Shown: in pieces, positions 27,821 through 59,771 of the stretch
Numbering within the stretch: the stretch's first letter is position 1
How the letters are laid out: the number at the start of each line of letters is the position of its first letter
From: Candidatus Uhrbacteria bacterium
GTDB taxonomy: Bacteria; Patescibacteriota; Patescibacteriia; UBA9934; GWF2-40-263
Direction: 5' to 3'
Assembly (NCBI GenBank): GCA_016188475.1
Contig: JACPHT010000007.1
Span: 16,467-80,466 of the forward strand
DNA: 64,000 nt
The notes under the pieces: model-generated
What the model saw: the letters and a program-made list of their open reading frames with translations, nothing else
Told to the model about the DNA's origin: nothing
Database searches by the model: none
Program-made: the position numbers and the translations under genes

Positions 27821-27901
27821 GTCTCCTGGTCATCGGACTGTCGCCGCTGTTCCCTACGACATGTTAAAACCCGGCCCAATCAGAATCATTTCAATCATAC
27901 C

Positions 27902-41560: not shown

Positions 41561-43684
41561 ATGAAAATCCTTTTTAACTCTACCATCTTTTCACTGCTAT
41601 TTCTAGCTGTATTTTTACTTAACATATTTATTTTACAATCTTCTTCAATCGGAATGATTCTTCTTGTTATTTATTTATCTGTTTATGGATGGAATACTGG
41701 AGGAATTATAGCTCGCCAAGAAACCGGACCAGCACGATGGTGGATAGGTTGTTTAACATTGTTATCGTGCATTTCTTTAATCTTGACGATCGCGTATTAT
41801 ATTGCGTTTATTCCAAAAGAACTCGTGATTATTATTATTTTGCTCACACCTCCGTTTGTAGATATTTTAAATAAACGAATTGAAGGACCGTCTATATTTG
41901 AAAAATTTCACGATGTCTGGAAAGAACACTCTCACCATATTGGTCGCGGCGTTTTAATTTCAATCTCAATAATTTTATTACTCGGTGTTTTGTTTATTAA
42001 CAAGCTCATAAATTCACCGATCACTGATGCGGTTCGTTCCCCTTGGGATCGCGTTGACCCAAGTGAGATTGTTATAATGGGAATGATTTTAATTTTACTA
42101 TTTGGACTTCTTGCTCGCGGGCGCGAACGAATACTATCACTTATTGCAACATCTTTTGTTTTGTTTCTTTTCGTATCGCTTGTCTTGTTTACTTTTCCAA
42201 TCGGATATGGTTTTGACTCATTTATTCATCAGGCAACTGAACGATATTTAGCGGAATTTGGAACAATCACTCCAAAACCTTTTTATTACATCGGGCAATA
42301 CGCTCTGACGCTTTTTTTTCATCATGGTTTTCAGTTGCCAGTCTCGCTCGTTGATTCATATCTTGTTCCGATTTTGACAGCGGTTCTTGTTCCGAGTGCT
42401 TGGTACACAGCCGCAGTTCACATCACAGGAAAAAAACGTCTGGCAATGTTGACTCTCACTGGTTTATTTTTGATTCCGCTAAGTTCTTTCATTGTGACAA
42501 CTCCGCAAGCGCTCGCAAACCTTTGGACGCTTATGCTTGTTTTGGCTTCAGCGCCTTATGTTTTTTCGGCTGAACGTCCAAGATTATTTTTCTTCGGAAT
42601 TATTGCTCTTGCAACGCTTGCAATTCATCCAGTCGCCGGTCTTCCAGCAATGCTTTATTTTGCACTTCTTTCCACTGATCCTGAACGGGCGCCAGTTAAA
42701 TGGCAAAAATTTTCAAAATTTGTTTTCGGATCGATTGTGACAATCGCAAGTGTGATTTTGCCAATATCGTTTCTCATCAACGCATGGATAAGCAAACAAC
42801 AATTAACAATCAAATGGAGCGCGTTAAATCCAATTCATATTTTGAGCGGATTTAACTTTTCATTATTTTTCGAAAATAAATTTTCTCCGTTTTTGGATTT
42901 TGTTTATCTTTATGGAAGAAACGCATTTTTTATTTTACTGTTTGTTTCTTTCTGCGCTTGGATGATGTATAGAAAAGAAATCCCAAAACGAACTCGCGCA
43001 ATTTTATGGATGATTGTCGCTTTGACTATAAATTATCTAATCATGAAAACAGCGATTGATTTTACATTCCTAATCAACTACGAACGCCTTAACTACGCGC
43101 AACGGCTCGTTCCTTTGATAGGTTTTTTCATTATCCCGTTTTTTATTCTTGGTCTTGGACATTTTCTTCTTAATCTGCAAAACCGTCCTTTATCGCTCAA
43201 TGTATCAACAATTGTTTTATTATGCGCATTTGCTTTGAGCGCATTTTATATGACATACCCGCGCCATGACGCGTACGAAACGAATAGGGGCTTCAACGTA
43301 AGCGCAGATGATCAAGCGGCCGTTCGATTAGTAGAAGACTGGGCTGAAAGTAAGCCATACATTTCTCTTGCCAATCAATCAGTTTCAGCTGCCGCAATTG
43401 AACAAATCGGTTTCAGATATTATGGTTCGCTATTTTTCTATCCCATTCCAACAGGAGAACCTCTATACCAATTTTTTCTGAAAATGAACGACGCTCCAAC
43501 TCGTGAAACTGCGCAAGAGGCTCTTAATTTGGTTCCAATGCACGGCGACATTTACACAATTTTTTATATTGTGAATTCCTATTGGTGGGACTCGCAAAGA
43601 ATTATCGAAACAGCTAAAACAACGGCTGACGACTGGCGAGCAATCAACAACGGTGCGGTGTATGTCTTTAAGTATGAATTTTAA
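41561..43684 (+). CDS. Large polytopic integral membrane protein (hypothetical, possibly GT-C-like).
   Basis: About 700 aa with many TM helices. The start is reassigned to MKILFN at 41561. Confidence 0.4.
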   Translation: MKILFNSTIFSLLFLAVFLLNIFILQSSSIGMILLVIYLSVYGWNTGGIIARQETGPARWWIGCLTLLSCISLILTIAYYIAFIPKELVIIIILLTPPFVDILNKRIEGPSIFEKFHDVWKEHSHHIGRGVLISISIILLLGVLFINKLINSPITDAVRSPWDRVDPSEIVIMGMILILLFGLLARGRERILSLIATSFVLFLFVSLVLFTFPIGYGFDSFIHQATERYLAEFGTITPKPFYYIGQYALTLFFHHGFQLPVSLVDSYLVPILTAVLVPSAWYTAAVHITGKKRLAMLTLTGLFLIPLSSFIVTTPQALANLWTLMLVLASAPYVFSAERPRLFFFGIIALATLAIHPVAGLPAMLYFALLSTDPERAPVKWQKFSKFVFGSIVTIASVILPISFLINAWISKQQLTIKWSALNPIHILSGFNFSLFFENKFSPFLDFVYLYGRNAFFILLFVSFCAWMMYRKEIPKRTRAILWMIVALTINYLIMKTAIDFTFLINYERLNYAQRLVPLIGFFIIPFFILGLGHFLLNLQNRPLSLNVSTIVLLCAFALSAFYMTYPRHDAYETNRGFNVSADDQAAVRLVEDWAESKPYISLANQSVSAAAIEQIGFRYYGSLFFYPIPTGEPLYQFFLKMNDAPTRETAQEALNLVPMHGDIYTIFYIVNSYWWDSQRIIETAKTTADDWRAINNGAVYVFKYEF

Positions 43685-44879
43685 TTGCTATTCTCTCCAA
43701 CTCATCAACGTATTTTTTCAGTGAAAAGCGCTCTGCGCTTTTTTGAATTTCTTTTGTTTTATTCCAAAAAAAATCCCGCTGTTTTTCAAACTTTTTAAAA
43801 GCGTCGGTAAGTGAATCAACACTCCCGGGTTCTACCAGCAAAGCGTTTTCTCCGTCTATAACCAACTCTGGAATCCCGCCAATTTTCGACGCGATGACAG
43901 CTGTTCCAACTTGAAAACTTTCGTAAATAACAGTTGGAGAATTTTCATAACACAACGACGGCAAAACAACACAATCACAATTTCTCATTAATTTTCTGAT
44001 GTGTTCCAATGATATAAATCCGTGGAAAAGAATCCTCGAATCAAGATTAGCTTTTTTCACAACACCTTGAACAGACGCCCCATCTCCAGCAATGTGAAGT
44101 TCAAATGGAAACGAAAGATTGTTTACGGCTTCGAGTAAAACTTTTATTCCTTTATGATCTTCTATCTGACCGACAAACAAAAATTTTATTGGACCATTTG
44201 GCGAAACTGTTTCGCGTTCTTCACGACTAACGTATTTCGGGGTCGGATTTGGAATCACTCGAATTTCTGAATTTGAAAAAAAATTCCGCGCCTTATAAAA
44301 CTCTGCAAGAAAATTCGACGGCGATATCACAACATCTGGCGAACCAATCGCGTGCTTTGTCGCTTTCTCATACAATCGACGGACAAAACCAACTTGTTCT
44401 TTATTGTCTTTATGATCACAAATTAAAATTCCACTTGGAATTGATAATTGAACATCGTGAATTGTGTGAATGTGATGTATCCCCATTTTTTGAACTTGCA
44501 AAGAAGCGCTCATTCCTAAACCTTTTAAGTTGTGCGTAAAAACGACATCGGGTTCTTCTTCTTTGAGCACTCGCTTCAATACAGACTTTGGAAACGGTCC
44601 AAATAAATCTATTACATGCCAAATTAAACGCAAAAAAAATGGAAACTTAGACGCGCTAAAAAGATGATATAAATTCAGTGGAAAAAATCTGTAAACTCGT
44701 TCCACATAATGTTCTGTAACTTTAGGAAACAAACTTTTTATTCCACCAAATGGCATTGTAGTAATTATAAAAACATCATGTCCACGCGAAAAAAATTCAT
44801 CAGCGACTCGTTGAGCAACAAGTTCGGCTCCGCCTCGTTCTGACGGTGGATATAAATTTGAGATTATTCCAATTTTCAT
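43668..44879 (-). CDS. Glycosyltransferase family 4 (GT-B).
   Basis: E(N)SPTVIYESFQVGTAVIASKIGGIPE, the GT4 C-terminal signature. Confidence 0.75.
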   Translation of the reverse strand: MKIGIISNLYPPSERGGAELVAQRVADEFFSRGHDVFIITTMPFGGIKSLFPKVTEHYVERVYRFFPLNLYHLFSASKFPFFLRLIWHVIDLFGPFPKSVLKRVLKEEEPDVVFTHNLKGLGMSASLQVQKMGIHHIHTIHDVQLSIPSGILICDHKDNKEQVGFVRRLYEKATKHAIGSPDVVISPSNFLAEFYKARNFFSNSEIRVIPNPTPKYVSREERETVSPNGPIKFLFVGQIEDHKGIKVLLEAVNNLSFPFELHIAGDGASVQGVVKKANLDSRILFHGFISLEHIRKLMRNCDCVVLPSLCYENSPTVIYESFQVGTAVIASKIGGIPELVIDGENALLVEPGSVDSLTDAFKKFEKQRDFFWNKTKEIQKSAERFSLKKYVDELERIAIKIHT

Positions 44880-46045
44880 ATATATTCTCGCGTGCTCTTC
44901 TGTTCTAAAACAGATCTGTACGTTTTCTCAAGATTTGATATAGCGGGCTCCCAATCAAAATTAGATTCAGCATTCAATCTTGCGGCTTGGCCAAAACGTT
45001 TTCTTACTTCTGGTTGAGAGAGAAACAACGTTATCGCATTTGCAAGTTCCGTTATATCTTCAGGAGGAACAAGAAGACCTGTGCTTCCGTCCAAAACAAC
45101 AGTGCGAACTCCGGGCAGGTTTGACGCGATGGTTGGAATTCCACTTGCGGCCGCTTCAAGCGCTACAAGACCAAATGCTTCAGCACGTTTCAGAGACGGA
45201 AAAACATGAAAATCCGATAACTGATAGATAAATGGAATATCACGCTCAGCAACATTCCCAAGAAAATGAACCCTGCCATTCAAAATCGATTTTCTAACAA
45301 CTGTTTCAAAACTTGACCGTAAATTTCCATCCCCAACAATAAGCATTTCCCAAGGTTGAGGAGTGATAAGTTTAAGCGCTTCAAGAAGAATAGGGGCACC
45401 CTTAAAATAATGCGCGCTGTCAAGACCTCCAACAAATAATATAACAGGAACATCTGTTCGAATATCCAACCGCCGTTTAAAAAATTCCGCATTGCCTGGT
45501 CGGAATCTGTGAAGATCAATTCCGAAAGGATGTATTTCAACTCGATCCATTGCGCCTTGAATTTCGGAAATAGCTGATCCATTAATATAATCCTTACTGC
45601 TTGCCAGTATCCGATCAGTACGATTCACAAGCCAAGGCAATAAAATTCTTTTATGAGCGTTAAACAAAGTGCCCCGAACACCGTTTCCTGTTGCGTCCAT
45701 GTGATAAGTCATGACAAGCCCTTGATTTGGAGAAATTGCTTTTCGAACTATTGTCGGCTCTGCACCTCCAAAAAAAGGATAATGCAAATGAACCAAATCA
45801 AAGCCTGACAAACGTCGAAAAAGCGATGGCATTACACCGGCATTTCCGATATGCACTATACTTGGAACACGATGCACATAATCTGGATCGTCAACTTCAA
45901 CATGACCTTTTGTTGTAAACACATGAACGTCATACCCGCGCTCTCGCAATCGTTCTGTGTATTCAAAAGCAACATTTCCCATTCCTCCGCGATATGGAGG
46001 ATAGGTGCAAACGACTTGTGCAATTTTTGGTTTTATTTCGGTCAT
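44876..46045 (-). CDS. Glycosyltransferase family 4 (GT-B).
   Basis: YPPYRGGMG N-terminus and EAFGLVALEAAASGIPTIAS motif. The start is reassigned to MTEIKPK at 46045. The ORF-track N-terminal extension translates a repeat element. Confidence 0.75.
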   Translation of the reverse strand: MTEIKPKIAQVVCTYPPYRGGMGNVAFEYTERLRERGYDVHVFTTKGHVEVDDPDYVHRVPSIVHIGNAGVMPSLFRRLSGFDLVHLHYPFFGGAEPTIVRKAISPNQGLVMTYHMDATGNGVRGTLFNAHKRILLPWLVNRTDRILASSKDYINGSAISEIQGAMDRVEIHPFGIDLHRFRPGNAEFFKRRLDIRTDVPVILFVGGLDSAHYFKGAPILLEALKLITPQPWEMLIVGDGNLRSSFETVVRKSILNGRVHFLGNVAERDIPFIYQLSDFHVFPSLKRAEAFGLVALEAAASGIPTIASNLPGVRTVVLDGSTGLLVPPEDITELANAITLFLSQPEVRKRFGQAARLNAESNFDWEPAISNLEKTYRSVLEQKSTREYI

Positions 46046-46116
46046 TGCGAGAAGGCCATAGGCAGACGAAGCAATCTCTAGGATTGCTTCGGTCGCTACC
46101 GTTCCCTCGCAATGAC
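46041..46116. repeat. Nested-stem element, copy 2. Its 5' arm contains the ATG of the downstream GT4 gene.
   Basis: GTCATTGCGAG..CGAAGCAATCTCT..GATTGCTTCG..CTCGCAATGAC. Confidence 0.75.
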
Positions 46117-46124
46117 AAAAATCT

Positions 46125-47180
46125 CTAATAAACGAAATATCTAAGTATCTTCCACACAAAACACAATATAGGATTTCCAATCAATGTGACAATAGGATTG
46201 TTTGTTTCCTGATGTATTATTTTACAAGTGAATAATCGGACTATTTCTGCATCGCTAACTTTCCGAATCGAACGTGACTCGCGACGTTTTCGCAAAACGT
46301 ATGTCCATGATTTAGGACTCAACAAACTTGCATACACATAAATCTTTTGTTTAATCCAACCTCCTTTAATTGCAAACAAAAGAAGAGGGATTTCCATTAT
46401 TACCATGAACGGTAAAAGAATCAATAGTGTTGACCAATTCAGATGTGAAAAATGGACAAGCCAACGATTTCGTTCCATCCAAAAAAATTTCTGTATTGAT
46501 CGTTTGAATTCGTAATCATGAAATGAGCGAGATCGTAAAGATAAAACATTTTTATATCCAGCAAGACGAATTCTCCAACCAAGTTCTAAATCCTCGTGAT
46601 ACAAAAACAAAAACGGATCAAGAACACCAATTTTTTTTAGAACTTCAGCTCGATACAATACTGCCGCGCCACTTGCATACGCAATTTCTTCCCCATCACT
46701 CCGACACTCCGTTACTTCATCACTTTTCTCTCCATTATCCCTCACAAATCCGAATCCCAAAAAATGAACCATACCTCCTGTTGAATTAACAATGGCCGGA
46801 TGTTTCCAAAGCAACATGAGCGATTGCACTGATCCTATTTTTGAATCCGACTCTGCCAATGTTACAGCCTCTTTGATCGCGTCGGGATGCAATTTCAAAT
46901 CATTGTTGTGTAAAAAAACATAATCAGCGCCGTGGAGCAAAGCATGATTGATGCCTATATTATTACCTTCTGCAAACCCTAAATTTTTTCCATTTGGAAA
47001 AAACGTGATGTCACTTACGTTTAGCAGATATTCCTGACTGCCATCTGTTGATGCATTGTCAACAAAAATAAATTCCAAACTTTCACGAGGATAATTAAGC
47101 GCGCGTAGTGCGTTTAACACTTCGTCCAAATATCGTTTCCCGTTGTAAGAAAGATAAACAATCGCGACTTTTGGCATCAT
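46125..47180 (-). CDS. Glycosyltransferase family 2.
   Basis: AIVYLSYNG...FVDNASTDGS, a DXD-type GT-A N-domain. Length is 351 aa. Confidence 0.75.
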   Translation of the reverse strand: MMPKVAIVYLSYNGKRYLDEVLNALRALNYPRESLEFIFVDNASTDGSQEYLLNVSDITFFPNGKNLGFAEGNNIGINHALLHGADYVFLHNNDLKLHPDAIKEAVTLAESDSKIGSVQSLMLLWKHPAIVNSTGGMVHFLGFGFVRDNGEKSDEVTECRSDGEEIAYASGAAVLYRAEVLKKIGVLDPFLFLYHEDLELGWRIRLAGYKNVLSLRSRSFHDYEFKRSIQKFFWMERNRWLVHFSHLNWSTLLILLPFMVIMEIPLLLFAIKGGWIKQKIYVYASLLSPKSWTYVLRKRRESRSIRKVSDAEIVRLFTCKIIHQETNNPIVTLIGNPILCFVWKILRYFVY

Positions 47181-47539
47181 AAATTGTCCTCCTTTGTCCT
47201 CATTTGTCCTCCTTTGTCTTCTTCTTCCACTGCCAACTTTCTCACCAGCTTCGTTATCTCACGCTCAACATCTTCAATTTTTCCAAAAAGCCGAAATATC
47301 AAATAGAATAAAGCGATGAGCGAAATATAAATTACAAAATCCGCGCCGCGTCCTACTCCGACAAGTTTCGCAATAACATCAGTTGTTTGAGGTGATATCG
47401 CAACACCACCAACCACAATCCAAAATACAATCCAAAAAATAAGCCACGCGATCGAAAGTGCTCCTTGTCGAAACTGACGAAGCGTCCGCGAGATCGCGAA
47501 CAAAGCAAATAGAAGAATGAAGATTTGGATGAGGGACAT
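47177..47539 (-). CDS. DUF2304-like small membrane protein. Its C-terminal tail (EEEDKGGQ..) is encoded by the 10-bp repeat.
   Basis: Two TM helices. The context after a GT2 gene is typical for this family. Confidence 0.5.
   Translation of the reverse strand: MSLIQIFILLFALFAISRTLRQFRQGALSIAWLIFWIVFWIVVGGVAISPQTTDVIAKLVGVGRGADFVIYISLIALFYLIFRLFGKIEDVEREITKLVRKLAVEEEDKGGQMRTKEDNL
47186..47229. repeat. About 4 units of the 10-bp repeat GTCCTCCTTT. Same repeat as in dnaX.
   Basis: Direct reading. Confidence 0.75.
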
Positions 47540-47542
47540 AGG

Positions 47543-47577
47543 GAAAAATCTGAAAGGACCGAAAGGTCGGAAATGTC
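47543..47577. repeat. About 4 units of the 9-bp repeat GAAAGGWCN.
   Basis: Direct reading. Intergenic. Confidence 0.7.
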
Positions 47578-47588
47578 AAAAAAAACAA

Positions 47589-48254
47589 TTACTGTCGGAT
47601 GCGGCGCAAGACTAGTTTAACCAACGTTTTCAAACCAACTGTAAAACTTTGCCCTTTTGAAAGCGAGTAATCAGTGTAGATTGCCTTAATCGGAACTTCT
47701 GCCAAAGTGAGTTTACGACGTCTTGCTTCAGCAATCAATTCAGATGAAACTTCCATGCGATTTGTCTGAATTTCAATCTGTCGTATAGCGTACGCTGTGA
47801 ACGCACGAAAACCGGATTGACTGTCTGTTACCAGTGCTCCAAATAAAAAAAACGTAACAATGTTTCCAAGCACGTTTGCCGCTTGACGATACCACGGCAT
47901 ATCTGTGCGTTTGAGCATTCGCGAGCCGATAACAACGTCCGCTCCTTTTTCAATCGCTTGAATGAACAATGGAATTTCTGATGGATCATGCTGACCGTCA
48001 GCGTCAAGAGTGACAACAATATCTGCTCCAAGTCGTTTTGCCATTTCAAAACCAGTTCCGATTGAAGCGCCAAGTCCGCGATTGATCACATGGCTTACAA
48101 CTATCGCGTTGTGTGCTCGTGCGATTTCCGCAGTTCTGTCACTTGATCCGTCATCTACAACAATAATTTGATCAACAAATGGCCGAGTGTTCGTAAGAAC
48201 CTCGGCAATAGTTTTTTCTTCGTTGAAAGCTGGAATGATGGCGATTGTTCTCAT
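47589..48254 (-). CDS. Glycosyltransferase family 2 (dolichol-phosphate mannosyltransferase-like).
   Basis: IIPAFNEEKTI...VVDDGSSDRT...LDADGQHDP. Confidence 0.75.
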   Translation of the reverse strand: MRTIAIIPAFNEEKTIAEVLTNTRPFVDQIIVVDDGSSDRTAEIARAHNAIVVSHVINRGLGASIGTGFEMAKRLGADIVVTLDADGQHDPSEIPLFIQAIEKGADVVIGSRMLKRTDMPWYRQAANVLGNIVTFFLFGALVTDSQSGFRAFTAYAIRQIEIQTNRMEVSSELIAEARRRKLTLAEVPIKAIYTDYSLSKGQSFTVGLKTLVKLVLRRIRQ

Positions 48255-48308
48255 AGCTGTTAGCTTTTAGGCCAATCGGATTTTCATCCTAATGGTCGGT
48301 ATCTATAA

Positions 48309-48384
48309 GGGAGTGGCTTGCGCCATGTTGTAGGGAACAGCGGCGACAGTCCGCTGGCCCGGAGACATGGTGCAAGTCACTCCC
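48309..48384. repeat. GC-rich inverted-repeat element in reverse orientation. Arms are GGGAGTGGCTTGCGCCATG / CATGGTGCAAGTCACTCCC.
   Basis: The core is GGAACAGCGGCGACAGTCCG, the reverse complement of the family core. Confidence 0.7.
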
Positions 48385-49400
48385 TACAAACTACTCAACA
48401 GTATCTTATTTGCCTTCATATACTCAATCGTTCGCGCGAGTCCATCCTCAAGGCGAACCAACGGAAACCACCCTAACTCTTTTGCGCGATCAATTCTAGG
48501 CAAAGAAAGTTCGGAAAGAAACACAAAACTTTCTCCTTCGGTTATTGTTGAAGTTGAATTTGTCATTTCAATAATCTTTTGCGCGACTTCCAACATTGAA
48601 TTATCAACGTCGCTTCCGATATTTGTCGGACCCGGATCTTGCGACGCGTCCATCAACCTAAACAAACAATCAACAACATCTGAAACATAAACAAGCGATG
48701 TTCGAAATTCTTTTCCTCCAAATAGAATAACTTCTTTCCCATCAAGCGCGTTCAAAATAAAATCTGGAATAAGGTGGCCGTCAAATAGTGGCATGCGAGG
48801 ACCATAAGTTCTGAAGATTCTCGCAATTCGAATGTCGATTCCGTGAACCTGACGATAAGTTTCAAACATTGTTTCAGAAAAACGCTTGCCCTCATCGTAA
48901 CACGCTCGAGGGGAAAGATGATTTACGATTCCGGTTTCTTCTTCACTTACACGCGGCTTCCCTTCTTTTCTTTCTCCATACACAACCGAACTTGATGCGA
49001 GTAAAATTTTCGCGCGATACTTTTTTGCAAGCTCAAGCGCATGATAAGTTCCGATAGAGCTTGAAAGAAGTGTTTGAATTTTATATTGATCAAATTGTTT
49101 GATTGATGTCGGACATGCCAAATGATAAATTTCTTGAATTCCCTGAAACGGCAACTTAAATGCCGCTAGCTCTGGAAATGATTCGAGATCAAACGGCTGG
49201 TTCACATCAAGTTTAATAAAACGAAAATTCGAATTTTGAAGAAGCAGATCGATATTCTTCGGATTGCTTGTTGCAAAATTGTCAACACAAATAACCCGAT
49301 GTCCGTCTTTGACCAATTGCTCGCAAAGAAAAGAACCAATAAAACCGGCTCCGCCTGTTATAAGAATGTTTTTATTAGAGAAAGAAGTTTGTACTGGCAT
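48384..49400 (-). CDS. NAD-dependent epimerase/dehydratase, UDP-glucuronate decarboxylase (UXS)-like.
   Basis: ITGGAGFIGS motif and YDEGKR (the YxxxK of UXS-type enzymes). Length is 338 aa. Confidence 0.75.
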   Translation of the reverse strand: MPVQTSFSNKNILITGGAGFIGSFLCEQLVKDGHRVICVDNFATSNPKNIDLLLQNSNFRFIKLDVNQPFDLESFPELAAFKLPFQGIQEIYHLACPTSIKQFDQYKIQTLLSSSIGTYHALELAKKYRAKILLASSSVVYGERKEGKPRVSEEETGIVNHLSPRACYDEGKRFSETMFETYRQVHGIDIRIARIFRTYGPRMPLFDGHLIPDFILNALDGKEVILFGGKEFRTSLVYVSDVVDCLFRLMDASQDPGPTNIGSDVDNSMLEVAQKIIEMTNSTSTITEGESFVFLSELSLPRIDRAKELGWFPLVRLEDGLARTIEYMKANKILLSSL

Positions 49401-49574: not shown

Positions 49575-49651
49575 CATTTCAATCTTTTTTTTAGGCGCTA
49601 TGCAAGCGGGGTCAAGAGATCCAGCCCATGTCTTTTGTTAACCTAAAATTG

Positions 49652-51235
49652 TTAAAAATTCGCATCAAGTCCAGCCACTGACTTTTTCTCTGTTGCGACG
49701 TCGTAATCCGAAGTCGAATTGATCTTCAAACCAAACGTGTAATTTCCAACAAATGCGTCGGAAATATCATCGATCTGTTTGTTCCATGTTGAGCCATACA
49801 GTTCTGTTGCTATTTGTTCGGACGCTATCGCTCGCAGTTCTCCTTTTTTTGACACTGTATAAACAGTTGGCACTGTTTGAAACTTCACCATTTTTGTTCC
49901 AGGATGATATGTCACATTTTTCCCAAGTTGGAGTGAGGACATGAATGAAGAAGAAACTTCTTTCACGTTGTTGAAATTATCAAACCAAGTGAAAAAAACT
50001 TTATCGTTTGGAAATGAGTGACGCTTTCCGTCTGACGCATAAAAATAAACAGCTCGACATGGATCGTCCGCTTTTGTTTCTCCAACGCACGAGAGTTTTA
50101 TTAGAGAATTTTGTTCAACAGAAACAGCCGCGTTGCTTATATCTATTTTCGCAAACGATGGTGCCATAACGAACGCTTGCGCAATATTTAATCGCCCTGT
50201 TCCAACTTTTCCTTTTGCATCACCAGTTGAAATAACAGGACTCGCGGATAAACGTAAAATCGTTTCGATATCGCTCGGACCAAGAATCGGATAAGATGAT
50301 TTCAAAAGCGCGGCCGCTCCCGCAACCATTGGCACCGCCATTGAAGTTCCGGCCCAACCATTTGCATAATATGCAGACGAAAAATCTCTTTGATTGTCAT
50401 CTTGAAATGTTGTGCTAAAAATGTTTTCACCGGGCGCTGAAATGTCAGTGCATGTGGAACCGTAATTGGAAAAATCGGATTTCGTGTCGTTTTCGTCACT
50501 TGACGCAACTCCGATTACCCAGTCAGCGTTTCCTCCGTCACCATGACATGCTGGATAAATAGGTTTGTCATCAACGTTTATTCCACCACCCTTGGTGTTG
50601 CCGACCGCCGCGACAATTACAACTCCAGCTTCATACGCTTCTTTAATCGCATCCTTAAAAGATGGGTCAACTTCAAAACCAGTAAAACTCAAGTTGATTA
50701 CATTAGCTCCGTTTGCAACCGCATACTGAATTGCTTCTTTCGCTACAACAGATCCACCGATTCCGTTGTTGTCTAAAATTCTCAAATTCATCATCCTCAC
50801 ATGCCAGTTTATTCCTGCGATTCCATTTGCATTATTTCCAACAGCGCCAATTATTCCTGCTATAACAGTCCCGTGAGGAATGGCTGAATCGTCGTATGGT
50901 AAATTGAACGATGGAATTGGACTTGCGTCATCATCAACGAAATCATATCCGTTTACATCATCAATGTAACCATTTTTGTCATTATCAATTCCGTCACCAG
51001 CAGTTTCATCACCGTTTACCCAAACATTACCAACAAGATCGGGATGATCCATGTCAAAACCTGTATCAAGAATCGCGACAACAACATCTGTTGAACCAAT
51101 GTTGGAATCCCAAGCTTGTTCTAATTCCATTTTTTTCAAATACCATTGTTGTGAAAAATAAAAATCATTAGGTGTTAGTGCGAACGCTGGAAATGCAAAT
51201 GTTGCGCAAAAAAAGATCACGAAAAAATATCGCAT
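49652..51235 (-). CDS. Secreted subtilisin-like serine peptidase (S8) with a C-terminal ~140-aa conserved surface domain.
   Basis: Asp (VAILDTGFD), His (HGTVIAGI) and Ser (GTSMAVPMVAG) catalytic motifs. Signal peptide present. Confidence 0.85.
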   Translation of the reverse strand: MRYFFVIFFCATFAFPAFALTPNDFYFSQQWYLKKMELEQAWDSNIGSTDVVVAILDTGFDMDHPDLVGNVWVNGDETAGDGIDNDKNGYIDDVNGYDFVDDDASPIPSFNLPYDDSAIPHGTVIAGIIGAVGNNANGIAGINWHVRMMNLRILDNNGIGGSVVAKEAIQYAVANGANVINLSFTGFEVDPSFKDAIKEAYEAGVVIVAAVGNTKGGGINVDDKPIYPACHGDGGNADWVIGVASSDENDTKSDFSNYGSTCTDISAPGENIFSTTFQDDNQRDFSSAYYANGWAGTSMAVPMVAGAAALLKSSYPILGPSDIETILRLSASPVISTGDAKGKVGTGRLNIAQAFVMAPSFAKIDISNAAVSVEQNSLIKLSCVGETKADDPCRAVYFYASDGKRHSFPNDKVFFTWFDNFNNVKEVSSSFMSSLQLGKNVTYHPGTKMVKFQTVPTVYTVSKKGELRAIASEQIATELYGSTWNKQIDDISDAFVGNYTFGLKINSTSDYDVATEKKSVAGLDANF

Positions 51236-51258
51236 AAAACTTCAAGCCAAATTTTATT

Positions 51259-51492
51259 CCTTGAGCTTGTCGAAGAGACAAAATTTGGTTAAATCATCTA
51301 CAGCCTTCGACAGGCTCAGGCAATAACTATTCATAACGCATTACCACCTTCGACAGGCTCAGGCAATAACTATTCATAACGCATTACCACCTTCGACAGG
51401 CTCAGGCAATAACTATTCATAACGCATTACCACCTTCGACAGGCTCAGGCAATAACTATTCATAACGCATTACGGCTCAGGCAATAATTTGC
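51259..51492. repeat. Tandem array of about 4.5 units of a 43-bp repeat CCTTCGACAGGCTCAGGCAATAACTATTCATAACGCATTACCA. A degenerate reverse-orientation copy precedes it.
   Basis: Direct reading. Units begin at 51304, 51347, 51390 and 51433. Confidence 0.85.
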
Positions 51493-51513
51493 AACATGCA
51501 AATTGTTTCTATT

Positions 51514-53553
51514 CTACCAGATCGCACAGGTTGCACCGAATCTGTTTGACAATGTAAATGGAAAAAATCCACCAAGAACAACGCCGTTATTTTCAAAAAT
51601 TCTCAAATGAGGACCGGCTTTTAACAAAGGCATTGTGTAAATTTCAGCGCGACCGTTTTGATCAATATCTCCTGAACACACTTTTGCTCCGACACTCGTT
51701 TTTTGTTGATAAGGCATGAAAAATGTCTCGCGTGTTCCTGTTGGTGAATATGTCTCGATAAACGAAACTTTTTTGATGAGCGAGCTAACTACGATTTCAT
51801 TTTGCCCATCGCCATCAATGTCGCTGGCTGAAATGGTTTGTCCTTTTGAATCTTTTGAGAGACTAAACTCTCGAACATAACGACCGTCGCCATCTGTAAT
51901 TCGAATCAAGGATTCATTTTTTTGTTGAAGCAAAAATATAAGTTCATTTGACGCGTCTTCATCCATATTCGCAATCGCAAGTTGAAGAACTGAATCAACA
52001 CGCCCAAATGGACGCAACATACCCTGAAGCTGTCCATAACGATTAAACATTCGCACATCTCCAATGCCTCCAGACTCTGAAACAACAAAAATTTCTGCGA
52101 TTCCATCCGCGTTCACATCACCTGAAAACACCAAAATTCCACCGCGATCCGATGGATCATAAGCAAAAAACTGCGAAAGCAATTTTCCATCTAAATCAAA
52201 AACTCGAACTTGTGGACCGCCGCCTTTCCTCGCGCCAGTAATAATTTCTTCTTTTCCATCGCCATTAACATCAGCCATTGCGAGCGAAACACCACCGCGA
52301 AAATTCTTGTTATAAGCCAAAAACGACCCTTGTTTTTCTCCGTGAGCGTTAACGCGGATGACGCGAGGTTCAGTTCCAGGACCTTCTGCCACAACAAGAG
52401 AACGAGAATGGTCTGTGTTTGTTTTGACAGGTGCGATTCCTTGACCTGTTGCAAAAACTTTCGCGGCTTGAAGCGCGTTCGCAATGTTCAATCTTCCGGA
52501 GCCAAGACGTTTGCGAGCTTCAACTGAAGTTTCCTTCACTGGATCAACAGAAAGTTTGAGAGACAAACGGATCTGTTCCGGAGTTAGCGATGGAAACGCG
52601 GATTTCAAAAGAGCAGCCGCGGCGCTGACCATTGGCGCGGCGATTGATGTTCCTTCCCATGGCGAACCATACGAAGTCGAGGTCAAAAGATTTGACGCGT
52701 CATTGTACACGCTCGAAAAAATGTTTGTGCCAGGAGCGCTTAAGTCAGTACATCTTTCTCCAAAATTAGAGAACGTCGCTTTTTGGTCATTTTTATCTGT
52801 TGCCGCAACACCGATTACAATTTCTTTGTTCAAAAGTGAATCGTAACACGCTGGATAACTTGGTTTTAGATTCACATCGCGATCGCCATTTCCTACTGCG
52901 GAAACCACCACAACACCTTGATCAACCGCCCACGCAATCGTCTTTGCAAAATTCATGTCAGATTGATCAGACGTAAAACTCAAATTGATAACTTGCGCGC
53001 CGTTTTTTACAGCGTATTCAATTGCTTGTCGCACATCATAAGTTGATCCAGCGCCTTTTTCGTTTAAGATTCGAAGTGGCATGATTGAAATTTTTTGATT
53101 AATACCAGCGATTCCGATTCCATTTTTTGTTTCAGCTCCGATAATTCCAGCGATCGCTGTTCCATGCGAAATGATTGTGTCATTGAACTCCTTGCTTATC
53201 ACAGGAGACGGGTCAGGATCACTGTCAACAAAATCCCATCCGATCGTGTCGTCTTCATATCCATTTCCGTCATCGTCTTTATGATTGTTCGGGATTTCCA
53301 ATTTATTGCGCCAATACTGATTTTCAAGGTCTTCATGATCAAGATCAAATCCGGCATCAAGAATCGCGACAATAACATCAGTAGAGCCAATGGTTTCCTG
53401 CCAAGCAAGCGAAACACCAATTTTATTCAAATACCATTGTTCATTGTAAAACGGATCGTTTTGAGATTTGGCAGATAAATGAAAAAAAGGCGTAAAAATC
53501 ACGCTAATTAGAATTAAAAAATAAAAACTGAATGCAAAAACAGACGCTTTCAT
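51514..53553 (-). CDS. Subtilisin-like S8 peptidase fused to C-terminal FG-GAP/VCBS repeats.
   Basis: S8 D/H/S motifs (AILDAGFD, HGTAIAGI, GTSIAAPMVS). FG-GAP-type repeats (DVNGDGKEEI, DVNADGIAEI). The start is reassigned to MKASVFAF at 53553. Confidence 0.8.
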   Translation of the reverse strand: MKASVFAFSFYFLILISVIFTPFFHLSAKSQNDPFYNEQWYLNKIGVSLAWQETIGSTDVIVAILDAGFDLDHEDLENQYWRNKLEIPNNHKDDDGNGYEDDTIGWDFVDSDPDPSPVISKEFNDTIISHGTAIAGIIGAETKNGIGIAGINQKISIMPLRILNEKGAGSTYDVRQAIEYAVKNGAQVINLSFTSDQSDMNFAKTIAWAVDQGVVVVSAVGNGDRDVNLKPSYPACYDSLLNKEIVIGVAATDKNDQKATFSNFGERCTDLSAPGTNIFSSVYNDASNLLTSTSYGSPWEGTSIAAPMVSAAAALLKSAFPSLTPEQIRLSLKLSVDPVKETSVEARKRLGSGRLNIANALQAAKVFATGQGIAPVKTNTDHSRSLVVAEGPGTEPRVIRVNAHGEKQGSFLAYNKNFRGGVSLAMADVNGDGKEEIITGARKGGGPQVRVFDLDGKLLSQFFAYDPSDRGGILVFSGDVNADGIAEIFVVSESGGIGDVRMFNRYGQLQGMLRPFGRVDSVLQLAIANMDEDASNELIFLLQQKNESLIRITDGDGRYVREFSLSKDSKGQTISASDIDGDGQNEIVVSSLIKKVSFIETYSPTGTRETFFMPYQQKTSVGAKVCSGDIDQNGRAEIYTMPLLKAGPHLRIFENNGVVLGGFFPFTLSNRFGATCAIW

Positions 53554-53613
53554 ATAGCGTCTGCATTGTAACATTGGTATCTTGTTTTCTCCAGATTCTG
53601 TATGGCGGTAGTT

Positions 53614-53688
53614 AAAGAGCGGTAGCACTATGTCTCCAGGCCATCGGACTGTCGCCGCTGTTCCTTTCGACATAGTGCTACCGCTCTT
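53614..53688. repeat. GC-rich inverted-repeat element. It has perfect 19-bp arms AAAGAGCGGTAGCACTATG / CATAGTGCTACCGCTCTTT, and the core is TCTCCAGGCCATCGGACTGTCGCCGCTGTTCCTTTCGA.
   Basis: Direct reading. Confidence 0.8.
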
Positions 53689-53750
53689 TGCTGTTATTTC
53701 GGTTTACCGGCAACCAATGTTAGTCCCCTTTGGAATTGGTACGACACTTG

Positions 53751-55214
53751 TTAAAAATTCGCATCAAGTCCAGCCACTGATGTTTTCTCTGTTGCGACGT
53801 CGTAATCTGAAGTCGAATTGATCTTCAAACCAAACGTATAATTTCCAACAAACGCGTCGGAAATATCATCGATCTGTTTGTTCCATGTTGAGCCATACAG
53901 TTCTGTTGCTATTTGTTCGGACGCGATTGCGCGTAATTCACCCTTCTTTGATACTGTATAAACAGTTGGCACTGTTTGAAACTTCACCATTTTTGTTCCA
54001 GGATGATATGTCACATTTTTCCCAAGTTGGAGTGAGGACATGAATGAAGAAGAAACTTCTTTCACACTGTCAAAGTTATCAAACCATGTAAAAAAAACTT
54101 TGTCGTTTGGAAACGCATGACGCTTCCCGTCTGACGCATAAAAATAAACTGCTTTACATGGATCATTTATTTGAGCGTTTACTTGACAGGCGAGTTTGAT
54201 GAGATTCCCAGCCACAGCTTCAGCCGTACCCCCTTCGACTGGCTCAGGGGATATTACTGTATCTACTGGCGTTTCCGTAACCGCTTCCCATTTCAATATC
54301 ACTGACTGATAATCATCTTTTGTGCCAGCAATCCAAAGTTCGTTCGTTGATGGATAATAAACATCACGGAGTGTGAAATTTTGCGGTGTATAATCTGTTG
54401 CTGTCCAAGTTTTTCCTCCATCTTGCGATCGAACAATAATTTTGTCGCCGACAATCACAATATCATCGCCAACTGCTTCAATGTCATAAAGCGTTTGTGT
54501 TGAAAGTCCGCTTACTGAAATCGTTGACCACGAATATCCGCTATCTGTTGTTTTTCGAATCGTTCCATTTTTTCCAACAACATATCCAGACGAAGAACTT
54601 GTAAACCAAACAGCAAGCAAATCTGTGTCAGTCGCCTTTCCTTTATTTGTCCACGTAATTCCAGAATCTGTTGTTTTTAACAATATCCCTTCTGAACCGA
54701 CAACCCACGCTGTTCCGTCACCACGATCTTGCACACCGAACAACGCAAGTGTCGTATTCGAAGTTGTTGTGTTCCATGTATCTGTATTTGAACCGTAATA
54801 TAAAATCCTGCCGTTTGTTCCAACAATGTACCCATGTTCAGAAGAAGCATCAATATCATAAAAAGTATCAGTGATTTCAAGTTTCCTTTGACTCCACGTC
54901 AAACCATTATTTGTTGATTCACGCAAGGTTCCACCTTCTCCAACCGCTCGGACTGTTGTTCCTGTTGTTTCAATATCTTGCCAATAAACATTTCCGCTTT
55001 GATCATACACAGTCCAAGTGTTTCCATTGTCAGTTGAACGAATGATGTTGCTTCCGTTTCCAACAGCAAAATAATTATCACCGGCTTTTGTAATACCTTG
55101 CAGACCTTGAATTGTTCCTTTTTCTTTTTCAATCCAACCTGAAGCGTGAGTCGGAAGAGAGATAAAAAACAATAAGACAAAAATCATTGATCTAATAAAA
55201 AAACGGTTCTTCAT
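53751..55214 (-). CDS. Secreted BNR/Asp-box repeat beta-propeller protein. It carries the same C-terminal ~140-aa domain as the S8 peptidase at 49652-51235.
   Basis: Multiple S/T-x-D-x-G-x-T-W boxes (STDNGNTW, STNNGLTW, TTDSGITW, TTDSGYSW, SQDGGKTW). Signal peptide present. Confidence 0.65.
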   Translation of the reverse strand: MKNRFFIRSMIFVLLFFISLPTHASGWIEKEKGTIQGLQGITKAGDNYFAVGNGSNIIRSTDNGNTWTVYDQSGNVYWQDIETTGTTVRAVGEGGTLRESTNNGLTWSQRKLEITDTFYDIDASSEHGYIVGTNGRILYYGSNTDTWNTTTSNTTLALFGVQDRGDGTAWVVGSEGILLKTTDSGITWTNKGKATDTDLLAVWFTSSSSGYVVGKNGTIRKTTDSGYSWSTISVSGLSTQTLYDIEAVGDDIVIVGDKIIVRSQDGGKTWTATDYTPQNFTLRDVYYPSTNELWIAGTKDDYQSVILKWEAVTETPVDTVISPEPVEGGTAEAVAGNLIKLACQVNAQINDPCKAVYFYASDGKRHAFPNDKVFFTWFDNFDSVKEVSSSFMSSLQLGKNVTYHPGTKMVKFQTVPTVYTVSKKGELRAIASEQIATELYGSTWNKQIDDISDAFVGNYTFGLKINSTSDYDVATEKTSVAGLDANF

Positions 55215-55591
55215 ATATCTAATTTATTTTCGATAACTTCAAGCCGATCTTCGTGTCGAAGATACTGGCTTCTTTGCATTAAAAGTTCCTGTTCAAATGT
55301 TATGTGCCGAATAGCGATCGCGTCAATTGCTGTAAGGATCTCATCCTTAAATCCAATCATCTCATCTTTTGTAACAAAATTTCGCATTTCGTATCGAAGA
55401 TTAAATTCCAAGTCCTTAAGATCATCTTTCGTTGCAAAACGTTCGAATTCTTTTTTGAGTTCGTCCTTTGTAGCGAAAGACTTAAGTTCGATCCTTATTT
55501 CATTAATGTCGCCCTTGATTTCATCAACGTCGCCTTTGATTTCATCAATGGACTTTTGAAGTTTATTTATCTTTGTTTCTTGTATTGACAT
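55211..55591 (-). CDS. Hypothetical coiled-coil protein.
   Basis: Heptad-like EIKGDVDEIKGDINEIRIELK. The start is reassigned to MSIQETK at 55591. The ORF-track N-terminus translates repeat elements. Confidence 0.4.
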   Translation of the reverse strand: MSIQETKINKLQKSIDEIKGDVDEIKGDINEIRIELKSFATKDELKKEFERFATKDDLKDLEFNLRYEMRNFVTKDEMIGFKDEILTAIDAIAIRHITFEQELLMQRSQYLRHEDRLEVIENKLDI

Positions 55592-55660
55592 ATCTTGTTT
55601 TGATTGTAACAAATTATTTTGATTAAAAAAATCCCCCCAACGCACATTGGGAGGATAAAG

Positions 55661-55740
55661 CATTATTGCCTGAGCAAAGTCGAAGGCTGTAGATGATTTA
55701 TTCAAATTTCATCCCTTCGACAGGCTCAGGGAATAAAATT
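55661..55740. repeat. Inverted pair of TTCGACAGGCTCA-type motifs (CCTGAGCAAAGTCGAAGG ... CCCTTCGACAGGCTCAGGG).
   Basis: Direct reading. Confidence 0.7.
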
Positions 55741-55827
55741 TGACTATCTTACGAGAATTTTCTTGTTTGTCAATCAGAGGATGTTGATAACATTAAGAGA
55801 TCCTTCGCGGAGTTTACCCTGAACGAA

Positions 55828-55869
55828 GGTAAAGTTATGCCTTCGACAGGCTCAGGTAATAACTTTACC
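55828..55869. repeat. Hairpin element with a conserved TTCGACAGGCTCA loop (stem GGTAAAGTTAT / ATAACTTTACC, a perfect 11 bp).
   Basis: Direct reading. Confidence 0.75.
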
Positions 55870-55899
55870 TAGGTCAAAGGGCTCAGAATAACAAACGAT

Positions 55900-55931
55900 A
55901 TAAAACCAAAACCCCCGCGAAAAGCGGGGGT
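55900..55931 (-). terminator. Rho-independent terminator after the large surface-protein gene (CCCCCGCTTTTCGCGGGGG followed by TTTTGGTTTT on the minus strand).
   Basis: Direct reading. Confidence 0.6.
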
Positions 55932-55954
55932 TGTTTGGTTCTTAATTCTCGCAT

Positions 55955-55994
55955 CCTTCGACTCCGGCAAATTATTGCCTGAGCCTGTCGAAGG
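55955..55994. repeat. Partial inverted pair of the same motif (CCTTCGACTCCGG ... CCTGAGCCTGTCGAAGG).
   Basis: Direct reading. Confidence 0.6.
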
Positions 55995-56036
55995 CCGTAA
56001 CTGCCTCCGCTCAGGGTATATGAGAGTCAAGTTAGA

Positions 56037-59000: not shown

Positions 59001-59771
59001 TGTTGAAGCTGAAGGCGATCCGGCAAAACTGACGGAAACATCCTTTGAGCTGACAACCTCACTTGTCGTAACTTTTTGTGCCGCGTCTGTGAGGTAAGCA
59101 AGTTTCGCTGTCACTTCGTCGCCGGCTGAAAGGCCAGAGAGTGTTGCGCCAGATCCGTCAAGCACAAAGCCTGACTTAAAGTTGTTGGCTGTAAAGCCAG
59201 CGCTTGAAACTTTTAATTTCTTACCACCCCAAACGAGGTAGTTGTCTGAACCGATCTTTACAAGTGCCCCTTCATAAGCTGAAGCTGCGCTTGTTAGAGA
59301 ATCGCCGACTGTGTAATCAACGAAGAAAACGTCTGGAACATCATCGATGTTTTGGTTCCAGTCGCTACCTGCGAGACCTTTGGCCACCTCTTCTGATTCA
59401 ATCCATCGGACTGAACCGTTTTTGGCAACCGCGTATGTCTTATTATCACTGGTAATTTTGATCCATCGTGAACCTGGGCGGTAAACAATGTTTCCACCGA
59501 GTGGAATTGCGGCAAGTTCAGAATCAGACAATGTTACAAGACCGCTGAAATCAACGTACCAAGTATTAAATGTCTTTAAGTTTGGGAACGAATAGCGTTG
59601 ACCGTCTGAACCGTAGTAATAAACGGTTGAGAGCGTCGAGCCCTTGATCAGGTCGCCGTAAGCTGCGGCTGAAGCCTGTTGTGGGACGAGCGCGGCAAAA
59701 CCGACAGACCATAGAATGGTCGCGGCAACTACCGCAACGGTAAGCGCTCGTTGTGCAATAGAATTGGTCAT
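56037..59771 (-). CDS. Very large (1244 aa) secreted cell-surface protein. It has Thr/Ser/Gly-rich Ig-like beta-sandwich repeats, and its N-terminal region is distantly related to the shared S8/BNR C-terminal domain.
   Basis: Signal peptide (MTNSIAQRALTVAVVAATILWSVGFAALVPQQASA). Repetitive composition. The gene is GC-richer than its surroundings. Confidence 0.55.
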   Translation of the reverse strand: MTNSIAQRALTVAVVAATILWSVGFAALVPQQASAAAYGDLIKGSTLSTVYYYGSDGQRYSFPNLKTFNTWYVDFSGLVTLSDSELAAIPLGGNIVYRPGSRWIKITSDNKTYAVAKNGSVRWIESEEVAKGLAGSDWNQNIDDVPDVFFVDYTVGDSLTSAASAYEGALVKIGSDNYLVWGGKKLKVSSAGFTANNFKSGFVLDGSGATLSGLSAGDEVTAKLAYLTDAAQKVTTSEVVSSKDVSVSFAGSPSASTLIAGQGIADLAHLKLTNNSASEVKLNKVTLARLGVSSDTTLSNLYLFDGFVRLTDVATISDGKVTFNDASGLFAIAPGASKEVVVRSDIAASTNGQTVGLKLASASDLTFSNGGAASGSFPLVGATHTIASQPSTFGTADFSGSTTPTANTSVDPAEGIKLFERTLSVGTNELSLKAVRVRNIGSIDAVDVNNWQLYVGGVKRGSSVASEDSLGYVTFDLSAAPIELKTGNHQVKVMADVIGGSGRTVQVGLRNSADFVAVDSDYGQPVLSTVGSSTFSAMDAGLQTMASGSLTFTKTTDSPTGNIVETSSGVTLGKWTIKAFGEKMKVENLRFAFTESDGNDVTLRNGAVYLNGVQIGSTTGLEANAGAGTDYTSYSFGSSFIVSPGVPASLEIRSDIFDSDGTDNIEDADTIRAEISDMNNVLNVQRMTSGSYIDAPDGAAVIANTLTVAAAALTVAKNGSYANQTTIDPKTAYKIGSYTVTAGTSEGINLTDFNIDFDQTDTATSDTSEPAAGDMYNLYLKYGPASNMVMTSIKGSISETSNTWSINYELKAGETIYVEAYADIDSAISTGEVIQTAFDANGTSVKSGTSPSTSKQAGQTVTITAGTFTEFNDDHPVAAIVYGNQEVTAAKYRFSASNESYTIEEMTTSVASATASGLVGEVRLYDGSTLKASTVYDESSLTRATWTGLSIPVAANATKILTVKYLLNSVGVGAGTSQTDVANTLYSVKFADSNGVETTETSGSEFSSVNGNSQYVFASIPTLSAVDLTNSTLVNGQAQDMYKFTLTASGGSVALKQFKLTTAWSDGGTGDTLEVESLKIYKNGSDITSSTTIVDELGNVVSDTTGIVDATPSTRVIVTWTTEDTISQGETVTYTVRGTPTGFRTVGADTVGDSVSFYLAQDAATNGTSVYINDETDQGAGQSEIMELFTSAAANTSDGTAAELIWSDISAASHASAANASSTGDWHNGFLVKNLDLAGETWSK

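Follow-up and report, generated by a model that had tools for sequence, protein, structure and literature searches.

Genes and modules at the locus

The window, as the whole stretch of DNA analysed is called here, comprises 64,000 nucleotides of a Candidatus Uhrbacteria bacterium (assembly GCA_016188475.1, contig JACPHT010000007.1, positions 16,467 to 80,466 of the forward strand). Its minus strand encodes a subtilase-type (S8) peptidase and a BNR/Ycf48-like beta-propeller protein that end in nearly the same domain, referred to below as the module. The following features were assigned from the list of open reading frames (ORFs), Pfam matches and a hidden Markov model of the module (domain HMM).

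49652..51235, minus strand: gene of the S8 (subtilase) peptidase, 527 aa (ORF list; Pfam Peptidase_S8, E 3.2e-45, residues 49-332)
49655..50110, minus strand: C-terminal module of the S8 peptidase, 152 aa (domain HMM, E 6.6e-80)
49649..50054, minus strand: putative gene-conversion tract, S8 copy, 406 nt (93.3% identity to 53748-54153)
51514..53553, minus strand: gene of a second S8 peptidase with FG-GAP repeats (Pfam Peptidase_S8, E 8e-50; FG-GAP, E 1e-14)
53751..55214, minus strand: gene of the BNR/Ycf48-like beta-propeller protein, 487 aa (Pfam PSII_BNR, E 2.1e-21)
53754..54209, minus strand: C-terminal module of the BNR protein, 152 aa (domain HMM, E 5e-80)
53748..54153, minus strand: putative gene-conversion tract, BNR copy (DPC codons to 3 nt past the stop codon)
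56037-59771, minus strand: gene of a 1244-aa protein with signal peptide, the large surface protein of the locus
59256..59642, minus strand: diverged N-terminal module of the 1244-aa protein (domain HMM, E 3.6e-55; residues ~44-172)

The 527-aa peptidase consists of a signal peptide (MRYFFVIFFCATFAFPAFA), the catalytic domain and the module, and the BNR protein of a signal peptide (…SLPTHASG), the propeller, a Pro/Glu/Val linker and the module. Outside the module the two proteins are unrelated (Peptidase_S8, E 3e-45, versus PSII_BNR, E 2e-21), as had been stated in an earlier interpretation based on the letters alone (the sequence-only reading). The module of the S8 peptidase is composed of one beta strand, a Cys-x9-Cys loop, two tandem beta/alpha repeats of ~52 aa and a tail ending in DANF. 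Over their full length, the S8 and BNR modules share 90% of their amino acids and 88% of their nucleotides.

Three module copies were detected in the window by the domain HMM, all of them in proteins with a signal peptide. The third copy directly follows the signal peptide of the 1244-aa protein, is devoid of the Cys loop and is 41-42% identical to the C-terminal copies at the amino acid level. It corresponds to the diverged version that the sequence-only reading had placed in the N-terminal region of this protein (residues ~44-172 by the HMM match), and the proposal of a discrete module common to two unrelated secreted proteins and, in diverged form, to a large surface protein was supported. 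The S8-FG-GAP gene is located between the two module-bearing genes and is syntenic in all related loci; no module copy was found in its product with the domain HMM.

The near-identical tract

Pairwise alignment of positions 49649-50054 and 53748-54153 yielded 93.3% nucleotide identity over 406 nt at an offset of 4099 nt, and 2000 random offsets used as a control gave at most 35.5% (mean 26%). The duplication of about 93% identity reported earlier is thus real. The range given for it (49645-50085) is 90.0% identical, and its implied offset of 4100 was one base out of register, at which identity falls to 29%. Identity was also said to extend about 20 bp beyond the stop codons; it ends after 3 nt (TAA+CAA), with 50% identity in the next 12 nt and 26% in the following 19 nt. 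The C-terminal peptide quoted as shared was correct. A repeat search returned the direct repeat 49649-49948/53748-54047 (95%) as the sole long one in the 16 kb examined.

The tract encodes the last ~133 aa of the S8 peptidase and of the BNR protein. In the last 132 codons the copies differ at 26 nucleotides, corresponding to 18 synonymous and 4 replacement codons. The differences (27 in 402 nt) are clustered, with a longest identical run of 113 nt (P=0.003, permutation). In the S8 copy this block spans 49854-49966 and is adjoined by a 28-nt patch at 49826-49853 with 9 differences, all synonymous; a second long identical block comprises 71 nt. Weaker homology of the paralogues extends upstream over the Cys loop (NSLIKLSCVGETKADDPC versus GNLIKLACQVNAQINDPC, 54% nucleotide identity over 50055-50110), where the peptides read NSLIKLSC…DPC in the S8 copy and GNLIKLAC…DPC in the BNR copy. 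The module is therefore longer than the near-identical tract.

Related loci and age of the fusions

A scan of GTDB species genomes provided 38 loci with the BNR protein (L001-L038), all from Patescibacteria and mostly from Candidatus Uhrbacteria, and a metagenome scan provided two more sister genomes (L039, L040). A conserved order (sigma factor, DUF5667, large surface protein, BNR-domain protein, S8-FG-GAP, S8, epimerase, GT2, DUF2304, GT2, GT4, GT4) is kept in L001, L002, L003, L004, L005, L007 and L008 and also in L039 and L040. Full-length orthologues of the BNR protein in L001-L007 are 43-88% identical to it, and orthologues of the 527-aa peptidase in L001, L008, L039 and L040 share 75-86% of its amino acids. 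The module is present in the S8 orthologues of L001, L003, L004, L007, L008, L009, L039 and L040. Both module-bearing genes occur in the same order in L001, L003, L004, L007, L039 and L040, which indicates that both fusions are old and predate the window genome. Fusions and gene order are shared by about ten independent Uhrbacteria assemblies. In L003, L004 and L007, the two modules of one genome are 59-61% identical in amino acid sequence and group by gene (74-83% among BNR modules, 68-76% among S8 modules).

The S8 orthologues of L002 (13391-15475) and L005 (13500-15572) comprise ~690 aa and are devoid of the module; only the catalytic part of ~360 aa can be aligned. Given these two genomes, the S8 protein's C-terminal part appears to have been exchanged at least once within the group. 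Several third-party annotation records of metagenome-assembled genomes (MAGs; L005, L007, L012, L015, L017 and others) are titled 'uncultured Gammaproteobacteria bacterium' yet contain a locus of the Uhrbacteria type and order; these titles look like mislabels.

Evidence for gene conversion

Pairs of modules within one locus were compared (n=26). The window pair is 90% identical at the amino acid level, followed by the pairs of L001 (78%) and L009 (73%), and the other 23 pairs range from 36 to 64%. In an alignment of four sequences (two genes each from the window and L001), orthology was favoured 59:4 by the informative sites located upstream of the DPC motif, and grouping within genomes 19:5 by those in the tract. 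The Cys loops, too, track orthology: the S8 type reads CVGET..DDPCR (window, L001 and L008), versus CQ.NAQ.NDPCK for the BNR type (window and L001).

A neighbour-joining tree was calculated from the last 133 codons. The window, L001, L039 and L040 form a four-genome clade, the eight modules of which exclude the S8 orthologue of L008 with 100% bootstrap support. Within this clade, the S8 and BNR modules of the window pair with each other (100%), and the S8 modules of L001, L039 and L040 form a group (100%). Synonymous divergence (dS) is 0.32 between the window copies, 0.72-1.28 between the orthologues of the window and L001 and 1.05 between the paralogues of L001. Nucleotide identity is 93% between the window copies versus 82-85% between the window-L001 orthologues. 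In the 28-nt patch, each window copy resembles its own orthologue.

The tract groups by genome while the sequence upstream of it follows orthology, which points to gene conversion. Homologous recombination between two direct-repeat coding segments 4.1 kb apart would have copied sequence from one to the other in the window lineage only, and conversion would have proceeded in several patches between the DPC motif and a point 3 nt past the stop codon. The 5' limit of the tract would be the point at which the similarity of the paralogues becomes high, and the 3' limit the end of the gene. Purifying selection alone was considered as the cause of the identity and was rejected because synonymous sites were homogenised as well.

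The exclusion of the L008 orthologue with full bootstrap support suggests that an earlier homogenisation had already taken place in the common ancestor of these four genomes. In L039 (2178-3650) and L040 (2227-3699) the Cys loop of the BNR protein is of the S8 type (CVG.T…DPCR) and thereby differs from its counterparts in the window and L001, which suggests that conversion took place separately in those lineages and had its boundary further upstream.

Concerted evolution by intragenomic gene conversion is known in bacteria from tuf gene pairs, rRNA operons and the repeat or anchor regions of surface proteins. As in these cases, paralogues within a genome are closer to each other than orthologues between genomes, and a discrete mosaic tract is found with incongruence at its boundary. 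The present case differs from them in that a single domain of two otherwise unrelated genes was apparently converted; the rest of these genes is non-homologous, so the tract can reach no further than the domain itself.

A dispersed repeat in the window

A repeat core, CCTGAGCC(T/A)GTCGAAGG, occurs in 12 copies in the 64-kb window, with 0 expected. The copies (CCTGAGCCTGTCGAAGG) lie in both orientations at 12 sites over 9518-61664 (e.g. 11461, 26616, 55714, 55840, 55978 and 61648), mostly inside longer A/T-rich intergenic palindromes such as GGCAAAATTAT…ATAATTTTGCC, and the family looks like repetitive extragenic palindromic (REP) elements or miniature inverted-repeat transposable elements (MITEs). 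Counted at up to 2 mismatches, the window and L001 have ~2 copies per 10 kb, and L002 and L007 have ~1 or fewer. A literature search for the core sequence retrieved no paper. Four of the 12 copies sit in a tandem array at 51299-51513, which consists of four to five 43-bp units with the CCTGAGCCTGTCGAAGG core and is located between the stop of the S8-FG-GAP gene and the start of the S8 gene. These two ORFs abut in L001; the array is therefore an insertion specific to the window lineage.

One copy of the core is translated:

54232..54248, minus strand: in-frame core copy (gene sense CCTGAGCCAGTCGAAGG, encoding PEPVEG) in the BNR linker, between propeller and module

With its palindromic CCCC…GGGG flanks, this copy is a genuine member of the repeat family. 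A chance origin of PEPVEG in a linker of Pro, Val and Glu was rejected, as the 21/21 match of core and flanks in L001 exceeds what could be put down to chance. The core is located 22 nt 5' (gene sense) of the first module codon (54209) and ~78 nt 5' of the tract start (54153). L001 and L040 also have the linker core in frame (SPEPVEG), and a degenerate form occurs in L039; in more distant BNR orthologues the linker is equally long and either reads PPVTEG at this site or is unrelated. A search allowing up to 2 mismatches found no core within the S8 gene or behind it.

The sequence-only reading had placed a core at the domain junction. The in-frame PEPVEG copy in the BNR linker does exist, but it does not lie at the tract boundary. 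The linker core as boundary of the conversion was rejected on account of this distance and of the S8 gene, which has no partner copy. From these comparisons, the linker core appears to be an inherited, translated passenger in a tolerant BNR linker and not the agent of the duplication.

Alternative explanations of the near-identity

An assembly artefact would account for the tract if a metagenome assembler had collapsed or cross-threaded diverged paralogues, or if one of the genes were chimeric; we regard this as very improbable. The window evidently stems from a MAG, as do all of its closest relatives, and exact blocks of 113 and 71 nt alternating with diverged patches are a pattern that graph assembly might in principle generate. 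However, in at least eight independent assemblies the genes flanking both copies are arranged and oriented as in the window. By this comparison of loci, which covers either side of each copy, a misjoin at the junctions can be considered excluded. The 27 remaining differences include isolated single ones in the most similar 3' half, too, which a collapse merging the ~18 expected in the 113-nt block should have erased. Intermediate degrees of homogenisation (78% in L001, 73% in L009 and ~60% elsewhere) are also seen in independent assemblies, and homogenisation driven by the assembler is unlikely. The sequence-only reading had proposed instead a recent domain shuffling, in which recombination at the dispersed repeat put a ready-made C-terminal module on the second gene. 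A real in-frame core with its CCCC…GGGG flanks just 5' of the BNR module and the abundance of the repeat in the window speak in its favour; in L001 a second core directly follows the BNR stop, so that the module segment is bracketed by two direct copies, an arrangement that we take to be coincidental. We nevertheless give this proposal hardly any credence. Both fusions predate the window genome and are found in the same order in L003, L004 and L007, where the modules are only ~60% identical, group by gene and follow linkers without a core. The S8 gene has no core at the junction or after the stop in any genome compared. The near-identical tract starts ~78 nt downstream of the core, inside the module, where the homology of the paralogues becomes high, and the linker core of the window, L001 and L040 was inherited and thus predates the window-specific homogenisation.

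Gene conversion, which replaces the domain-shuffling interpretation, is ordinary biology, and the locus illustrates that near-identical domain copies in MAGs can be real. The more interesting by-product is a large, unmodelled surface module of Patescibacteria with a predicted EccB-repeat-like fold.

Distribution and partners of the module

The module (~150 aa) had no Pfam match even at E<=10 and none in NCBIfam, and its profile matched no PDB sequence. In a Pfam scan of 72 family members, no family covered the module. A word-indexed search returned 16 relatives, which belong to Patescibacteria or are unnamed metagenome proteins and without exception have a hypothetical-protein annotation. Searching the module profile against 1.84 billion cluster representatives gave 4,699 matches at E<=1e-3 and 2,351 at E<=1e-30; since the profile spanned ~60 flanking positions, the latter number (50%-identity clusters) is the safer lower bound. 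The module thus appears to be an undescribed and very widespread extracellular module, which among the genomes retrieved here occurs in Patescibacteria (candidate phyla radiation).

The position of the module was recorded in 148 sequences retrieved from the best 150 hits listed. Among these it was located at the extreme C-terminus in 128, in N-terminal position in 6 and in two copies in 9. A hydrophobic N-terminal stretch was present in 131 of 140 members starting with Met. Recurrent ends of the C-terminal members are DNF, DNL, DSL or DIL. The C-terminal versions have a conserved Cys pair of the extracellular type, and further conserved residues of the module are aromatic and acidic (Y25, W45, Y71, Y87, W112, D117, D118, D121 and Y127).

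Co-occurrence with other catalytic domains, for which the sequence-only reading had recommended a genome-wide check, and with structural domains was looked for across the family and was found (e.g. S8, GH5/6/10, Ig-like arrays and propellers). In the 72 members scanned with Pfam, Big_13 was detected in 29 and PSII_BNR in 27; further partners were Big_7, Sortilin, PKD, Peptidase_S8, GH10, GH6, GH5, DUF3048 and CBM96.

Predicted structure

An AlphaFold2 model of the module was built from a 19-sequence alignment (pLDDT 92.3, pTM 0.80). It shows a leading strand, the Cys-x9-Cys loop and two similar strand-and-helix units of four strands each. The two halves are homologous according to hhalign comparison of the half-profiles (E 5.9e-5 over 50 columns). 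DSSP assigned two helices to repeat 1 and three short helical segments to repeat 2.

Foldseek searches of the whole module against the PDB gave EccB1 and EccB5 as the top nine matches, which were weak (E 0.08-1.3, query-normalised TM-score 0.29-0.30). A single-repeat model was therefore built (pLDDT 87.5; fourth strand two residues long). With this query of 59 residues, EccB1 and EccB3 matched best (query-normalised TM-score 0.62-0.68, root-mean-square deviation 2.1-3.5 A over the entire repeat); the weak E-values of 0.6-6 are as expected for the length of the query. PlyCB was not among the Foldseek matches. Against BFVD, uncharacterised actinophage proteins were matched (E 4e-4), followed by weak matches to CHAP, lysozyme and amidase lysins.

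It is reasonable to describe the module, on the basis of these models, as two tandem EccB-repeat-like beta/alpha units. The repeats of EccB, a component of type VII secretion (PDB 3x3n, 4kk7, 5cyu and 6sgy), resemble it as tandem, extracytoplasmic units of ~50-55 aa, each with a four-stranded sheet and two helices. They differ from it in being part of a membrane-anchored secretion component, while the module is a free-standing terminal part of secreted proteins. There is no sequence similarity between the two, and the Pfam model T7SS_ESX1_EccB did not match. In the paper that defines the EccB repeats, these are likened to the wall-binding protein PlyCB (PMC4769845). PlyCB of the streptococcal phage C1 is related to the module only through the EccB likeness and was not itself retrieved.

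Function of the module

The module most likely serves as a common non-covalent anchor by which proteins are retained on the cell envelope. The sequence-only reading had also spoken of a surface-targeting or anchoring module, and such a role stands as its most plausible function, by analogy. This view draws on the analogy with the anchor domains SLH and CWB2 and on the EccB/PlyCB-like fold. The module is found in secreted proteins, in terminal position and with many partners, and it is common to a large surface protein and neighbouring enzymes. In Firmicutes it is usual for an anchor domain to be common to the surface-layer (S-layer) protein and many other surface proteins, a dozen in SLH and CWB2 systems (bioRxiv 10.1101/2025.04.02.646754). 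Examples of SLH and CWB2 proteins are Sap/EA1 and the BSL proteins of Bacillus anthracis, and SlpA and the Cwp family, including the protease Cwp84, of Clostridioides difficile. These domains are likewise terminal, repeat-built, non-catalytic and common to the major surface protein and secreted enzymes of one genome. They are swapped freely among catalytic partners, and their genes are often clustered beside those for wall-glycan synthesis. Such a cluster adjoins the module locus in the window:

43668..49400, minus strand: glycan-synthesis cluster (Pfam: NAD epimerase/dehydratase, GT2, DUF2304, GT2, two GT4)

Its order is kept in L001, L002, L003, L005 and L008, and in L004 and L007 as far as the contig reaches. 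SLH and CWB2 differ from the module by the lack of any sequence relationship and by another predicted fold; the loci retrieved here belong to Patescibacteria or unclassified MAGs. The module and the 72 members gave no Pfam match to SLH, CWB2, SH3 or LysM. Searches of Pfam and NCBIfam with the module, even at E<=10, returned none of the anchor families described so far, be it SLH, CWB2, SH3b, LysM, choline-binding or another. A literature search on Patescibacteria found no described anchor domain, only general statements on S-layer proteins in the phylum. In analogy to SLH or CWB2 in Firmicutes, the ligand of the module would be peptidoglycan, a secondary wall glycopolymer or else the S-layer.

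Alternatively, the module could be a carbohydrate-binding or adhesion module for a substrate or for the host surface of a presumably epibiotic bacterium, or it could be a C-terminal sorting or secretion signal. We consider this explanation unlikely, though less so than those discussed above for the tract. The conserved residues, being aromatic and acidic, are of the kind typically found where sugars are bound; a sugar-binding site would equally be expected of an anchor that binds a wall polymer and does not discriminate. GH10, GH6 and GH5 enzymes and a CBM96-bearing protein belong to the family, but most partners are Ig-like arrays, propellers and proteases, not glycosidases. The extreme C-terminal position in 128 of the 148 sequences with their DNF, DNL, DSL or DIL ends recalls sorting domains. 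The N-terminal placement after the signal peptide in large surface proteins and the double copies speak against such a signal at the C-terminus, and the C-terminal domains of the S8 and BNR proteins did not match TIGR04183 (type IX secretion system sorting domain) or other NCBIfam sorting models. The presence of one module in the main surface protein and in enzymes encoded next to it matches the pattern of SLH and CWB2.

Our overall interpretation, that gene conversion homogenised two old module copies and that the module most likely holds proteins at the cell surface, is judged somewhat more probable than its negation. Several points weigh against it. Homogenisation of two ~84%-identical paralogues by an assembler is conceivable. 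The function is inferred throughout. The Foldseek E-values to EccB (0.08-6) are weak, no binding of peptidoglycan by EccB has been demonstrated (PMC4769845), and a transfer of function from the EccB-like fold to the module is weak. The glycoside hydrolases of the family would fit a substrate-binding carbohydrate module, and the strict C-terminal position and the conserved D-x-N-F/L end of most members would be compatible with a sorting signal. The assignment of the 1244-aa protein to the S-layer is guesswork, prompted by its size, its signal peptide and its lack of matches.

Patescibacteria are a very large and almost wholly uncultured group of ultra-small bacteria, many of them epibionts, and the construction and decoration of their envelope are little understood. 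Being present in thousands of their secreted proteins and having no Pfam or NCBIfam model, the module flags their surface proteome. It is a candidate display or anchor tag and provides a concrete binding hypothesis, and its EccB-repeat-like fold may help to ask what the EccB repeats of type VII secretion bind. Tentatively, and with considerable doubt, a hitherto undescribed, Patescibacteria-wide anchoring system may be envisaged, in which the EccB-like module would tether an S-layer-like protein and a varying set of exoenzymes to a lineage-specific wall glycopolymer made by the adjacent cluster and gene conversion would keep the anchors matched to the evolving ligand.

Neighbouring genes and a second dispersed element

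The 1244-aa protein had no Pfam, NCBIfam or PDB sequence match. A scan for promoters and terminators in the region 49.3-60.2 kb found no enrichment over shuffled sequences. Between the gene of the 1244-aa protein and the BNR gene, a further ORF was listed:

55211-55705, minus strand: coiled-coil ORF, 164 aa (repeats FATKDELKKEFERFATKDDLKDLEF)

Three copies of the repeat core flank the block 55211-56036 that contains this ORF. The spacer between the genes of the large surface protein and the BNR protein comprises only ~260 nt in L001, compared to which the block of the window looks like an insertion. The listed TTG start of the ORF overlaps an inverted core copy, and its real start is probably located further downstream.

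A second dispersed element is a very stable hairpin of ~74 nt (folding free energy -41 to -55 kcal/mol), the three copies of which share an identical 20-nt core (GGAACAGCGGCGACAGTCCG):

27834-27853, minus strand: hairpin element
48310-48383, plus strand: hairpin element
53615-53690, minus strand: hairpin element

The hairpin was absent from the 38 GTDB loci, L001 included. A scan of the window with Rfam at gathering thresholds returned one tRNA only; the two dispersed elements do not belong to any RNA family described so far. The sequence of the outer stems varies between the copies while complementarity is kept, and the copies at 48310-48383 and 53615-53690 are located just 3' of genes. The S8-FG-GAP ORF as listed (719 aa, 51514-53673) begins with an ATG at 53673 inside the latter copy. 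Its true start is likely the Met of MKASVFAFSF… at 53553, which opens a typical signal peptide.

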